A stretch of 64,000 bases of DNA from Alphaproteobacteria bacterium. GTDB taxonomy: Bacteria > Pseudomonadota > Alphaproteobacteria > 16-39-46 > JAJRRM01. The stretch covers positions 6,803 through 70,802 of the forward strand of contig JAJRRM010000114.1 of the NCBI GenBank assembly GCA_024279475.1, read 5' to 3'. The notes beneath the pieces were generated by a model. That model was not told the origin of the DNA, ran no database searches, and saw only the letters and a program-made list of their open reading frames with translations. The stretch's first letter is position 1; each line of letters starts with the position of its first letter. The translations under genes were made by a program, and so were the position numbers. Shown in pieces: positions 16,827-21,611 of the stretch.

Positions 16827-18200
16827 CTAGATCATATATTCAGGCCTAACCCAAGCATCGAATTTCTCTTCTGATACATAACCTAGTTTTAGGGCTGACT
16901 CCTTAAGCGTTAAACCTTTTTCATGAGCCTGTTTTGCAATTTCTGCTGATTTATCATAACCAATATGTGGTGCTAACGCTGTTACTAAAAGTAAAGAATT
17001 ATTCAAATGTTCTTCAATACGATCTTTATTTGGTGCAAGTCCTTCTAGACAATTACTTCTAAAACTATCTAGAGCCCCTGACATCAAGCGCATACTCTGT
17101 AGTACATTATAGATAATCACCGGTTTATAGGTATTGAGTTCAAAATGACCAGAAGCACCCGCTATAGTCACTGCTGTATGGTTTCCAAATACTTGTACAC
17201 AAGTCATAGCAAGTGCCTCTGCTTGTGTAGGATTTATTTTACCTGGCATAATAGACGATCCTGGCTCATTAGCTGGTAATTCTAATTCCCCAAATCCACA
17301 TCTTGGTCCTGATGCCAAGAACCTAATATCATTAGCAATCTTCATAGCTGCACAACTTAGTGTATTTAATGTACCAGAGAAAGCTACCAATATATCATGA
17401 CTAGCCAAAGCTTTAAATTTGTTAGGAGCTGGTTTAAAGGGCAAACTTGTTAATTCAGCCAACTTACGAGCTATTTTCTTATCAAATCCCTTTGGCGCAT
17501 TGAGGCCTGTTCCAACAGCTGTACCACCTTGTGCCAAGAAAAAGACTTCACTTAGAGCTTGATTAATATACTCTCTACAACTTTTAATTTGTTGAGCATA
17601 ACCAGAAAATTCCTGTCCTAATGTAAGTGGAGTGGCATCTTGTAAATGTGTGCGACCAATTTTCACAATTGATGCATATTCTTTAGCTTTTTTATCTAAA
17701 TTTTTTTCAAAAGCCTCTAATGCTGGCAACATTGATTTTTTACATAATAAAGCTGTTGCCACATGCATAGCAGTAGGAAATGTATCGTTAGAAGACTGAC
17801 TTTTATTAACATGATCGTTGGGGTGTAAGGGTTTTTTTGAGCCTAATGGATACCCTAGAATTTCATTAGCACGGTTAGCCAATACCTCATTCATATTCAT
17901 ATTACTTTGCGTACCAGAACCTGTCTGCCAAACAACCAGTGGAAAATGCCCATCAAACTTGCCATCTAGCACCTCATCGCAAGCAAAAACAATAGTTTCA
18001 GCTAATTTTTTATCAAGAACCCCAATTTCTGCATTTACTAAAGCTGCCGCTTTTTTCACATAAGCCAATGCCTGAATAATTTCACCTGGCATAATTTCTG
18101 TTCCTATTTTGAAGTTATTCAAAGACCTCTGCGTTTGAGCTCCCCAATATTTATCTTCTGGCACATTAATTTTTCCCATAGAATCTATTTCTATCCGCAT
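16827..18200 (-). CDS. fumC: class II fumarate hydratase
   Basis: [16 protein letters not shown] signature. I prefer the ATG at 18200 ([10 protein letters not shown]) because AGGAGG lies just upstream. The track ORF extends to 18230. Confidence 0.9.
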
Positions 18201-18433
18201 GATTTTCCTCCTAAAATTCAAGCATATCATTGCTATAAGTTAAAATTTTCTTAGTAATCCAAATATATAAAACCTTTATATATACCATGAAATATTTTTT
18301 TCTTTTATAAGAACAGCTTTCTCCAAAATTTCTTCTACAAAAGAATGTCTCTTTTACCTATCTTTCTACAAGATTTTTCTATAATTTATACTTTCTAACT
18401 ATAAGTACACGCCTAAATTTCAAGCCTCTAAGT

Positions 18434-18973
18434 TTATTTTTTCTTTCTAAAAGAGTCTATGGAAACTACCTTTGCCGACCTATCTTTCTTTTTTATATCC
18501 TTATTAGATTTTGTTGACTTCTTCTTATTTATAGTCTTTAAACCTGTCTTCTTTTTTTCAAGAAAAACTTCAGCGTTAGGTAAATTTTCTAGTTTTTCTG
18601 GAGAAAGAGCATCTTCCAACTCTTTTGGTGTAAATTGTAAACCAAACTTTACAGAAGGATCAACAAATCCTGTAATAGAACCAAATGGCACAATAATATT
18701 TTCTTTAATATCATTAAAGCTTAAGGAAATTGAAAAGCCTACATCTGTAACCAACAAATCCCAGAACTGGTACTGTAAAACAATCGTCACTTCCTCAGGA
18801 TGGCGCTCCTTCAGATAATCTGTCATCTTCACACCAGGATAATTAGTTTGGAAGGTAATATACAGGTGATGGTTTCCAAATAAACCATTCTCTTTTACAT
18901 CCTCTAGAATGGTTTTTACCACACCTCTTAAAGCATCTTGTACTATATCTTCATATTGCATGGTCACGAGCAC
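18434..18973 (-). CDS. sspB: alpha-proteobacterial SspB (ClpXP specificity-enhancing adaptor)
   Basis: YEDIVQDALRGVV...HHLYITFQTNYPGVKM...EEVTIVLQYQFWDL...VPFGSITGFVDPSVKFGLQF matches the SspB-alpha family as I recall it. GTG at 18973 or ATG at 18961 are both possible starts. Confidence 0.8.
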   Translation of the reverse strand: MLVTMQYEDIVQDALRGVVKTILEDVKENGLFGNHHLYITFQTNYPGVKMTDYLKERHPEEVTIVLQYQFWDLLVTDVGFSISLSFNDIKENIIVPFGSITGFVDPSVKFGLQFTPKELEDALSPEKLENLPNAEVFLEKKKTGLKTINKKKSTKSNKDIKKKDRSAKVVSIDSFRKKK

Positions 18974-18999
18974 TTACCTCTATCATTATGATGTGAGTA

Positions 19000-19375
19000 T
19001 ACTACTTAACACCTATTTCTGCCAGCGCATTTATGAGGGGCTTCTGTTGCCCGGCCCCCTCAAACCGCGCATCGGGATATACCCAATGACTTATGCTGCA
19101 GCAGCAACTCTTCGGAATAAACCCTCAGAGTTGTCATTAACAGCAGAAGCAAGGATAACGACATTGTCGTTAGCCACTGCTAGTTTTTTTCTTTCGACAT
19201 TTATAGTGTCTAGTCCGATATCGGTGGTACCATGCCGAGCGAAAACAATATCTTTACTACACATGTCGAGCCTATTTCATCCCCAGTATTTTATTGGTGG
19301 AGATGCCGGGTACCGCCCCCGGGTCCATAATGCTTATTCCATACGAAATTTATCGCCATAGTAAGACTTACACCC
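19000..19375 (-). ncRNA. ssrA: two-piece (circularly permuted) tmRNA; outer ends approximate
   Basis: On the minus strand the T-arm is CCGGG-GGCGGUA-CCCGG, then acceptor strand CAUCUCC, discriminator A and CCA (terminal A at 19295). A 10-nt spacer follows, then GGGGAUGAAAUAGGCUCGAC (19284 downward). The acceptor stem forms with G3:U70. The tag ORF at 19174..19091 reads ANDNVVILASAVNDNSEGLFRRVAAAA*. This is the most GC-rich non-coding island in the window. Confidence 0.85.
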
Positions 19376-19607
19376 TACATATATATATATAGTATAAAAT
19401 ACTACAAATTTAAAGGGGCAATGCTAAAAAATATGATACATTACTCCTCTTATGGATGGATTTCTCTATTTTTTACTATCCTCTACAGAGATTTGCTCTA
19501 TATTAGCACTAAGTAACAACAAAAACCCTTAAATTCATTTTCTATCTTGGCTTTTCCTCTAAAAAACATTAAAACTACGAAAACTAGGTTAAAAAACAGG
19601 ACAAAAA

Positions 19608-21611
19608 GTGAGCCTATCAAAAATAAATACAAAAAAACGTATGGCAAATGCAGTGCGTTTTCTTTCAGTAGATGCTGTGAATGCCGCTAATTCAGGGCAC
19701 CCTGGCATGCCACTTGGCATAGCAGATGTGGCTACTGTTTTATTTTCTGACTTCCTTGTTTTCAACCCAAAAGATCCTTCTTGGCCTAACCGTGACCGCT
19801 TTATCTTAAGTGCTGGTCATGGGTCAGCTCTACTCTACAGTCTATTACACCTTACAGGCTATTCAGCTATAACTCTGGAAGAACTGAAAAATTTTCGTCA
19901 ACTTGGCAGCTTAACACCAGGCCACCCAGAAGCTAACCACACGCCTGGCGTTGAAACAACTACTGGTCCACTAGGGCAAGGACTTGCCAATGCTGTAGGC
20001 ATGGCCTTGGGAGAAGCTCTTATGGCTAGTCGTTTCGGAAAAGATATAGCAAATCACTATACTTATACAATTGTAGGAGATGGCTGCCTGATGGAAGGCC
20101 TTTCTCAAGAAGCCATTTCTCTAGCTGGACACCTGAAGCTTAGAAAATTAATCGTTCTTTTTGATGACAATGGCATTACCATTGATGGAAAAACAGATCT
20201 TTCTACTAGTGAAGATACAATTAAACGTTTTAAATCATGTGGTTGGGCAACTCACTCTATTGATGGTCACGACTATGAAGCCATTTCTGCAGCTCTTGAA
20301 AATGCAAAAAAAGAAGACAAACCAAGCCTTATTTCATGTAAAACTATTATTGGTTTTGGAGCACCAAACAAGCAAGGATCTAATAAAGCACACGGATCCC
20401 CTCTCGGAAAAGAAGAGCGAGAAGCTCTGAAAAATAGCCTGCATTGGGCTCATGATCCTTTTGACATACAGGATGAAATCTACAACGATTGGACTTCTTC
20501 TTTAAAACGCTGCGAGAAAATCTACACAAACTGGCAAAAATCTATAGCCAACAAGCCCCATCAAGAGCGCAAAGATTTTGAATGCTTTCTTAATAAAGAG
20601 CCAAACAAAGGCTTACAATCCGCTATAGAAAACTATTTTATAGAAATTTTAGAGAAAGGTTCCTGCAAAGCAACACGCCAAGATTCTCAAAAATCTTTAG
20701 AAGTTTTAACAAAATATATTCCTCAACTGATTGGGGGTTCTGCTGACCTCACAACCTCCAATAATACAAAGTCTAGCATGCAAAAGGATATAACATCAAA
20801 AGATTTCTCCGGATCTTACATTAACTATGGCATTCGTGAACATGCCATGGGGGCTATTATGAATGGTTTATCCTTATATGGAGGTTTCATTCCCTATGGC
20901 GGTACATTTCTAACATTTACTGACTATATGAGACCAGCTATACGCCTCTCTGCGCTGATGGGTGCACAAGTCATTTATGTCATGACACATGATTCTATTG
21001 GGCTTGGCGAAGATGGCCCCACGCACCAGCCTATAGAACATCTAGCATCATTACGAGCTATACCTAACCTGTACGTTTTTAGGCCTTGTGACGCTGTAGA
21101 AACAATGGAATCTTGGCAAGCAGCTCTTTCTTTAGACCGTTCTTCCTCTGTTTTAGCCCTCTCGCGCCAAGCCCTTCCTTTATCTCGTAAAGAACCAAAG
21201 AAAGAAAATCTAACACTGCGCGGTGGATACATTATATCTGAATCAATAACTGTGCAATCAACTATAGCTCTTTTAGCAACAGGATCTGAAGTGCATTTAG
21301 CCCTAAAAGTTCAAGCAGCGCTGAAAGATAAAAATATATCTGCCTATGTTGTTTCTATACCCTGTTTTGAGCTATTTAATAAACAGTCTGCTACTTACAA
21401 AGAAAGAGTTTTAGGAAATGCTTCTGTCTTAAAAGTAAGCATTGAAGCTGGTGTTTCTCTTGGTTGGGATAAATATGTTGGCGACAAAGGTCTAATAATT
21501 TCCATAGATACTTTTGGTGCCTCAGCACCAGCAGACACTTTATTTAAACACTTTGGTTTTACAACAGAAGCTATAGTGAAAAAAATATGTACGCAACTAA
21601 ATGAGAAATAG
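19608..21611 (+). CDS. tkt: transketolase
   Basis: GHPGMPLG, the GDGCLMEG TPP motif and THDSIGLGEDGPTHQP. GTG start. Confidence 0.9.
   Translation: MSLSKINTKKRMANAVRFLSVDAVNAANSGHPGMPLGIADVATVLFSDFLVFNPKDPSWPNRDRFILSAGHGSALLYSLLHLTGYSAITLEELKNFRQLGSLTPGHPEANHTPGVETTTGPLGQGLANAVGMALGEALMASRFGKDIANHYTYTIVGDGCLMEGLSQEAISLAGHLKLRKLIVLFDDNGITIDGKTDLSTSEDTIKRFKSCGWATHSIDGHDYEAISAALENAKKEDKPSLISCKTIIGFGAPNKQGSNKAHGSPLGKEEREALKNSLHWAHDPFDIQDEIYNDWTSSLKRCEKIYTNWQKSIANKPHQERKDFECFLNKEPNKGLQSAIENYFIEILEKGSCKATRQDSQKSLEVLTKYIPQLIGGSADLTTSNNTKSSMQKDITSKDFSGSYINYGIREHAMGAIMNGLSLYGGFIPYGGTFLTFTDYMRPAIRLSALMGAQVIYVMTHDSIGLGEDGPTHQPIEHLASLRAIPNLYVFRPCDAVETMESWQAALSLDRSSSVLALSRQALPLSRKEPKKENLTLRGGYIISESITVQSTIALLATGSEVHLALKVQAALKDKNISAYVVSIPCFELFNKQSATYKERVLGNASVLKVSIEAGVSLGWDKYVGDKGLIISIDTFGASAPADTLFKHFGFTTEAIVKKICTQLNEK

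Follow-up and report, generated by a model that had tools for sequence, protein, structure and literature searches.

A two-piece tmRNA gene of an alphaproteobacterium with a probable 35-codon tag template, encoded directly upstream of sspB

The window analysed here, a stretch of 64,000 nucleotides (nt) from a contig of a small-genome alphaproteobacterium of a small, uncultured order, carries on its minus strand the gene of transfer-messenger RNA (tmRNA), ssrA, followed directly by sspB, the gene of the adaptor that reads the tag written by tmRNA. ARAGORN makes one call at this place, a permuted tmRNA that spans 19000-19390 of the minus strand, and the Rfam family RF01849 (alpha_tmRNA) matches 19032-19418 on the same strand with 210.3 bits (E 1.8e-60, threshold 50) over model positions 1-355, that is, over its full length. 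The family RF04321 (tmRNA_permuted) scores 131 bits over the same tmRNA, for a threshold of 47. Behind it, the open reading frame (ORF) 18434-18973 (minus strand) matches PF04386 (E 4.1e-41, profile positions 3-156 of 156). The locus is a genuine alphaproteobacterial tmRNA with the sspB adaptor gene behind it, and the tmRNA just upstream of sspB that the first-pass annotation had described is borne out by ARAGORN, RF01849 and PF04386. The features, in the order of transcription, are as follows.

19385..19418, minus strand: 5′ leader or promoter-proximal stretch (CCCCUUUAAAUUU...UAUAUAU), aligned with RF01849 model positions 1-39 at high posterior probability
19295..19384, minus strand: acceptor piece, with a 5′ hairpin, the P2 3′ strand, the T-arm and the acceptor 3′ strand to CCA (19297-19295), from the RF01849 and RF04321 structure lines and the sequence
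19285..19294, minus strand: intervening spacer of 10 nt (AUAAAAUACU), from CCA to the GGGG at the 5′ end of the coding piece, from the model alignments, the sequence and the relatives
19032..19284, minus strand: coding piece, with the acceptor 5′ strand, P2, pseudoknot 1 (PK1), the tag template and the 3′ helices, from the covariance models, the sequence, the relatives and the fold
about 19238-19215, minus strand: PK1, within the coding piece
19199..19205, minus strand: pre-resume motif UAUAAAU (U at -1, A at -4, U at -5), 14 nt past PK1, from its conservation throughout the order
19094..19198, minus strand: likely tag template of 35 codons with resume codon GUC, peptide VERKKLAVANDNVVILASAVNDNSEGLFRRVAAAA and stop UAA (19093-19091), from the comparison with relatives
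19163..19174, minus strand: N-proximal ANDN, whose GCU (19174-19172) was the resume codon of the first-pass annotation and whose NDN lies at 19171-19163, from the sequence
19130..19138, minus strand: C-proximal NDN, 12 residues from the C-terminus, invariant in the order
19061-19035, minus strand: 3′ hairpin GAGGGG...GGCAACAGAA...CCCCUC at the end of the coding piece, conserved across the class
18968..19031, minus strand: spacer between ssrA and sspB, with no terminator-like hairpin, a weak sigma-70-like match and a ribosome-binding site GAGG at 18980-18977
18434..18967, minus strand: sspB, alpha-type SspB adaptor (PF04386), 177 amino acids from GTG 18967 or 179 from GTG 18973

The gene order is circularly permuted: the acceptor 3′ strand with its CCA (CAUCUCCACCA, ending at 19295) lies upstream of the acceptor 5′ strand GGGGAUG (19284-19278). 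The acceptor stem GGGGAUG/CAUCUCC, read from the sequence, contains the G3-U70 pair that confers alanine identity. The putative ssrA promoter probably lies within 19385..19418. The spacer between CCA and GGGG is similarly short in the nearest relative and takes about 30-60 nt in other members of the order; a loop of 10 nt between the pieces raises the question of how processing yields two of them. Past PK1 and the pre-resume motif comes an open tag frame, UAUAAAU/GUC ... GCU GCU GCA GCA UAA, whose exact resume codon (the codon at which translation would restart) we infer below. The first-pass annotation had read the frame 19174..19091 as ANDNVVILASAVNDNSEGLFRRVAAAA followed by a stop, and the letters read exactly so; the second NDN that it saw in the tag is also there, the two copies lying at 19171-19163 and 19138-19130. 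In the predicted fold, the first NDN codons and the next two Val codons (19163-19177, minus strand) form a perfect 6-bp hairpin, AACGAC AAU GUCGUU. The single-sequence fold places hairpins over these codons and over SEGLFRRV, and was not used as evidence.

The SspB protein most likely starts at GTG 18967, which aligns with the starts in relatives. It matches the solved structures of alpha-type SspB (PDB 2NYS, E 4e-36; 2QAS and 2QAZ, E 1e-28 to 1e-29), and has a Lys-rich linker and a C-terminal tail, VVSIDSFRKKK, that aligns with the VVSLDAFRKK of 2NYS. The genome also encodes SmpB (PF01668, E 7.2e-55, on contig C89) and a ClpX with the zinc-finger N domain (PF06689). The pathway of trans-translation and delivery is thus complete in this genome (ssrA, sspB, smpB, clpX).

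Three in-frame codons are candidates for the resume position: GUC 19198-19196, indicated by RF01849 and the relatives, GUG 19177, chosen by ARAGORN, and GCU 19174, chosen by the first-pass annotation and RF04321. The open frame extends upstream of this GCU, and GUC lies eight codons upstream. The relatives used here are tmRNAs of the window's order and include the nearest one, L126, on a metagenome contig of 512 kb, which is the only useful closer relative that SspB scans of genome and metagenome collections provided. In all nine usable tmRNAs of the order UAUAAAU stands just past PK1. Seven of the nine continue with GCC or GCA, the window and L126 with GUC, and ARAGORN itself picks the aligned GUC as the tag start of L126.

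What a resume site looks like in the class can be read from a canonical reference set of 123 distinct alphaproteobacterial contexts, with tags that start with ANDN and have at most 15 residues. U is found at -1 in 98% of them, A at -4 in 98%, and the spacer from the PK1 3′ strand to the resume codon measures 11-15 nt in 120 of the 123. These two positions have U85 and A86 of Escherichia coli tmRNA as counterparts, and mutagenesis showed that frame choice depends mainly on these (PMC2481249). With U at -1, A at -4 and a spacer of 14 nt, the GUC site agrees with the set on all three counts. At the GCU, position -1 is G and the distance to PK1 is 38 nt; at the GUG of ARAGORN, position -1 is A. 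GUC has an unambiguous precedent as a resume codon in another alphaproteobacterial lineage, in the context cauauaaau/GUC AAC GAU AAC (VNDN...). A position weight matrix of the 10 nt that precede canonical resume codons ranks GUC first in the window, and does not do so in the relatives. It holds little information beyond positions -1, -4 and -6, and the near-invariant positions, the spacing and the alignment were therefore relied on instead.

The reading frame itself provides a further argument. Between the conserved site and the C-proximal NDN, the nine tmRNAs of the order have no in-frame stop in 147 codons, for 8 and 19 stops in the +1 and +2 frames. The lengths of this leader vary between the lineages of the order, always by whole codons. 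Because the stretch is stop-free and in frame in nine sequences, which an untranslated leader would not be, it is best explained as translated. Hence, GUC 19198-19196 is the likely resume codon, and the tag probably has 35 codons, VERKKLAVANDNVVILASAVNDNSEGLFRRVAAAA.

Three observations speak against this assignment. ARAGORN begins the window's tag at GUG 19177, calling VANDNVV..., and RF04321 puts the consensus tag start on the GCU, aligning its consensus GCaAACGAuAAc with GCUAACGACAAU. In addition, one member of the order (L033, in genome G004) loses the frame on the way from the conserved site to its NDN...AA end. In this gene (G004:C12 97586-97935), the T-arm and acceptor stem show indels of single bases, a stop breaks the tag frame, and the score is much lower; its frame break is likely an indel error of the assembly, or else the mark of a decaying gene.

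If translation resumed at GCU 19174 (or GUG 19177), the tag would have 27-28 codons, and its two NDN could bind both subunits of the SspB dimer for delivery with high avidity. The two program calls just given would fit this, as would the A at -4 before GCU. Two Asn-x-Asn (NxN) motifs are present in several members of the order and in five other families, and in the E. coli complex seen by cryo-EM it is the proximal SspB subunit alone that links the tag with ClpX, the distal subunit being free (PMC9963277). Such a start is nevertheless distinctly unlikely, in view of its G at -1, where 98% of contexts have U, and of its 38 nt from PK1, where 11-15 nt is the rule. Moreover, the eight codons upstream of it are open, stand behind UAUAAAU and show a conserved R-K-K-(L/V) in three relatives, where the changes are synonymous; the first NDN is also missing from L126, the nearest relative. 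The 27-codon tag of the first-pass annotation hence survives as to being long, and gives way as to its start and length, GUC and 35 codons being the probable ones. The alignment to a covariance model that it had proposed as a check divides, since RF04321 sides with its GCU and RF01849 with the upstream site.

Translation might also resume just before the C-proximal NDN, at GUU 19141-19139 or GCU 19144-19142, and give a tag of normal length, (A)VNDNSEGLFRRVAAAA, the upstream RNA then being untranslated. The NDN...AA module alone does resemble a complete canonical alphaproteobacterial tag and is the only invariant part, and an Ala codon precedes this NDN in L126 and L046. However, the resume codon would then lie about 70 nt from PK1 with no conserved motif upstream, and the codon before the NDN specifies Val, Ile, Met or Cys in other members of the order. 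Untranslated RNA is also unlikely to stay free of stops in nine sequences (0 for 8 and 19 in the other frames), or to hold a length of 19-20 codons in four diverged genomes. This start is very improbable, and the normal-length tag from the second GCU, which the first-pass annotation had offered as its alternative, is disfavoured by the same distance from PK1 and the same stop-free stretch.

With GUC as the likely start, the tag is an outlier in the class. Among 142 tags called by ARAGORN in a sample of the class chosen for diversity of families, 123 have 9-13 residues, and the longest one outside the window's order has 25. All eight genomes of the order have tags of 21-37 codons, of which the following are examples.

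Window, 35 codons: VERKKLAVANDNVVILASAVNDNSEGLFRRVAAAA
L126, the nearest relative, 33 codons: VTNRKKLLAKKFIAANGDFANDNDRTNAVAAAA
G001, 32 codons: ANRRKKVVANDNKFVTPLAANDNSREAVAAAA
G002, 30 codons: ADTLVTAVNDNVGVRGDFINDNHEAATMAA
Family f3 (example), 21-23 codons: ANDNSMRVAAINDNFVGAVAAAA
G006, second copy, 37 codons: ADNRKRRFGVAFGTVALNDNTPKAINDDMPAKRARVA

The C-proximal NDN is invariant across the order, with the exception of an NDD in the second copy of G006, and stands 7-12 residues before the C-terminus, a spacing that, as read from the predicted tags, is the geometry of a complete canonical alphaproteobacterial tag. The N-proximal motif is variable in the order (ANDN, DNDN, NQN, NAN or VNDN) and absent in L126, which has AKKF. 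In families f1 and f2 there are 19-20 codons before the C-proximal NDN in all four genomes, with an R-K-K-(L/V) patch in f1. The window and L126 share 95% identity in the tRNA-like and pseudoknot parts, 98% in the 3′ part and 63% in the tag template, where the frame is kept. The 20 codons before the C-proximal NDN would thus form a translated, in-frame, lineage-specific extension of a length that is conserved within the family, containing in the window a basic RKK patch and an additional ANDN. It appears to evolve fast, constrained mainly on frame and length. Outside the order, two NxN motifs are found in six sampled tags, from five families. As far as predicted tags can tell, the long tag and the doubled motif are lineage traits, exceptional for the class and typical for the order.

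An internal nucleotide duplication was considered as the source of the second NDN and rejected: AACGACAAU and AAUGACAAC share only the letters that the codons require, and no recent duplication is evident. The genome G006 (3% contamination) has two full-length alphaproteobacterial tmRNA genes (L021, L034). The second has its own terminator and a tag of 37 codons that ends with ...KRARVA instead of Ala-Ala; it could be a second copy, possibly borne by a mobile element, or a contamination of the bin. In family f3, partial tmRNA-like matches are found beside the full gene (G003:C54 3291-3416, G005:C11 11507-11632 and G007:C45 4029-4213). They are 126-185 nt long, with E of 1e-8 to 1e-10 and below the gathering score, and may be remnants at integration sites.

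These data suggest how the extended tag would work. The circularly permuted ssrA would yield a two-piece tmRNA; stalled ribosomes would be rescued by Ala-tmRNA and SmpB; translation would resume at GUC, adding 35 residues; and SspB would hand the tagged proteins to ClpXP. The tag would be laid out as VERKKLAV-ANDN-VVILASAV-NDN-SEGLFRRVAAAA. Of the NDN sites, SspB would most likely bind the invariant C-proximal one, which has the canonical spacing; the C-terminal tail of SspB would tether to the N domain of ClpX, and ClpX would engage the ...VAAAA end. The C-proximal NDN and the approximately 12 residues from it to Ala-Ala probably constitute the working degron, as SspB-alpha site and ClpX degron. 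Because L126 lacks the N-proximal NDN, binding by both SspB subunits does not seem to be a conserved requirement, and the extension would most likely be a spacer or an auxiliary element rather than an obligatory second adaptor site. In E. coli, work on tag design reportedly found that delivery improved when the determinants for SspB and for ClpX were set further apart. A more speculative proposal, which is rather unlikely on present evidence, is that the order evolved a bipartite tag, with a C-terminal SspB/ClpX module and an extension of about 20 codons, of conserved length and often with a second NDN besides the RKK patch, having a function of its own. If so, the extension might keep the degron at a distance from the ribosome or a folded stub, let SspB and ClpX bind together, or recruit the second SspB subunit or another protease.

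The adjacency of ssrA and sspB is the other prominent feature of the locus. The gap from the RF01849 model end (19032) to the sspB start measures 58 nt for GTG 18973 and 64 nt for GTG 18967. Of 30 alphaproteobacterial loci taken from different families, 21 have sspB as the same-strand neighbour immediately downstream of ssrA. A wider survey took 251 genomes, spread evenly over the class, searched them for both families and compared the coordinates; only the 150 best-scoring matches of each family search were compared, and the sample thus leans to well-conserved copies. Among the 115 genomes with both genes among the matches listed, 85 have sspB less than 400 nt downstream of ssrA and on its strand, the SspB domain beginning 51-298 nt past the tmRNA model (median 119 nt). 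In a further 17 sspB lies further off, within 5 kb downstream of ssrA, and in 13 it is elsewhere or on another contig. In the eight genomes of the window's order the adjacency is kept in families f1 and f2, and sspB lies elsewhere in f3. The order ssrA-sspB is the ancestral, class-wide arrangement and the default in Alphaproteobacteria. Comparison with relatives thus upholds the same-strand adjacency reported in the first-pass annotation (85 of 115 genomes, f1 and f2), and shows that what had been taken for a noteworthy feature is the norm of the class. Literature text searches for ssrA-sspB adjacency or for ANDN tags returned nothing useful. The position of sspB beside ssrA is said to have been noted by Lessner et al. 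Downstream of sspB, with a gap of about 200 nt, the window has fumC (16827-18230) on the same strand, and fumC also follows sspB in the nearest relatives, L126 and L046. Among 79 alphaproteobacterial loci centred on SspB and with complete flanks, 27 have fumC behind sspB, in every case on the same strand, which makes ssrA-sspB-fumC a recurrent order.

A scan of 18200-19700 gave no terminator-like site, and our own scan gave none between ssrA and sspB either in the window or in the 21 adjacent relatives; a terminator uncoupling the two genes, which the first-pass annotation had named as a point to check, is therefore not seen in sequence scans. In family f3, where sspB lies elsewhere, a stem followed by a T-run occurs within about 60 nt behind ssrA in three of the four main copies. 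The gaps in the 21 adjacent relatives span 24-159 nt, with 24-37 nt in 11 of them, and these 11 are, to judge from their length, too short for a separate promoter and a leader. With no terminator to part the two genes, and in many relatives no room in the gap for a separate promoter, at least some of the sspB expression probably comes from transcripts that start at the ssrA promoter and read through. Processing would excise the tmRNA from such a precursor. A more speculative reading, rather unlikely on present evidence, is that in Alphaproteobacteria generally the tmRNA precursor doubles as the 5′ portion of sspB mRNA and so links adaptor supply to tmRNA synthesis.

A weak promoter-like match within the gap goes against read-through and leaves room for independent transcription. 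It is sigma-70-like, CTGGCA-18-TATACT at 19025-18996, and sspB might be transcribed alone from a promoter there or just before the gap, the adjacency then reflecting a conserved gene order with no shared transcript. Such an arrangement would also suit the general knowledge that tmRNA is far more abundant than the mRNA of an adaptor needs to be. However, promoter-like matches are at the level of shuffled sequences (6 for 5.2 expected), the segment with the -35-like hexamer is deleted in L126, and of the 21 adjacent relatives 11 leave a gap of just 24-37 nt and none shows a terminator-like site. Transcription of sspB from its own promoter alone is hence a possibility of some weight, if a doubtful one. 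The terminator-free arrangement, present class-wide, suggests that expression of the tag writer and of the tag reader is coupled.

In conclusion, the locus is likely a standard alphaproteobacterial trans-translation locus, with a 35-codon tag resumed at GUC, a C-proximal degron, a lineage-specific extension, and read-through into sspB. For annotation, it shows that long-tag tmRNAs receive conflicting resume codons from tag-calling programs and covariance models. A comparative rule resolves the conflict and gives a longer tag than any single tool reported: the rule takes the codon that comes after UAUAAAU, lies 11-15 nt past PK1 and is preceded by U at -1 and A at -4. The order also provides natural variants of tag length and of adaptor-site number, usable for testing the role of SspB-site spacing and number in ClpXP delivery. 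Neither point overturns current understanding: the locus is ordinary, and its tag is an outlier.

By their sequences, the RNA is a predicted member of the alphaproteobacterial two-piece tmRNA family, and the protein one of the SspB family. Caulobacter crescentus provides the paradigm of the former, a two-piece tmRNA from a permuted ssrA (Keiler, Shapiro and Williams 2000, as cited in PMC3985003). The two have in common the gene order (acceptor piece, spacer, coding piece), the tRNA-like domain with its G3-U pair and encoded CCA, PK1 before the tag, an ANDN-type motif and an Ala-Ala end in the tag, and the conserved 3′ hairpin with GGCAACAGAA. The window differs from Caulobacter in a tag template of about 35 codons, where 87% of sampled alphaproteobacterial tmRNAs have 9-13, and which is thus about three times the usual length. 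It also differs in a probable GUC (Val) resume codon instead of GCN (Ala), in two NDN motifs with a basic N-terminal extension, and in a CCA-to-GGGG spacer of only 10 nt. The closest parallels are the long tags with two NxN motifs of other small-genome Alphaproteobacteria (ANENRIAMNDNYSMEALVAA, ANKNKKVRVAANRNSRIAIAA, AKDSINDNTPALVAANGNYLAARAA and VNDNKTFANSNVAPVALAA), which like the window's have a second Asn-x-Asn in a lengthened tag and whose resume context is uauaaau/GCN. Those tags have 19-25 codons, whereas the window's family has 32-35, with an extra basic leader of eight codons before the first NDN. As for the adaptor, it shares the PF04386 domain with SspB-alpha (Lessner et al. 2007; Chien et al. 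2007; structures 2QAS and 2QAZ from Caulobacter and 2NYS from Agrobacterium). It is 45-50% identical to other alphaproteobacterial SspB proteins, with a flexible charged linker and the VVSxDxFRKK tail in common, and, as for the majority of the class, its gene comes right after ssrA. The only notable difference is the very Lys-rich linker of the window's protein.

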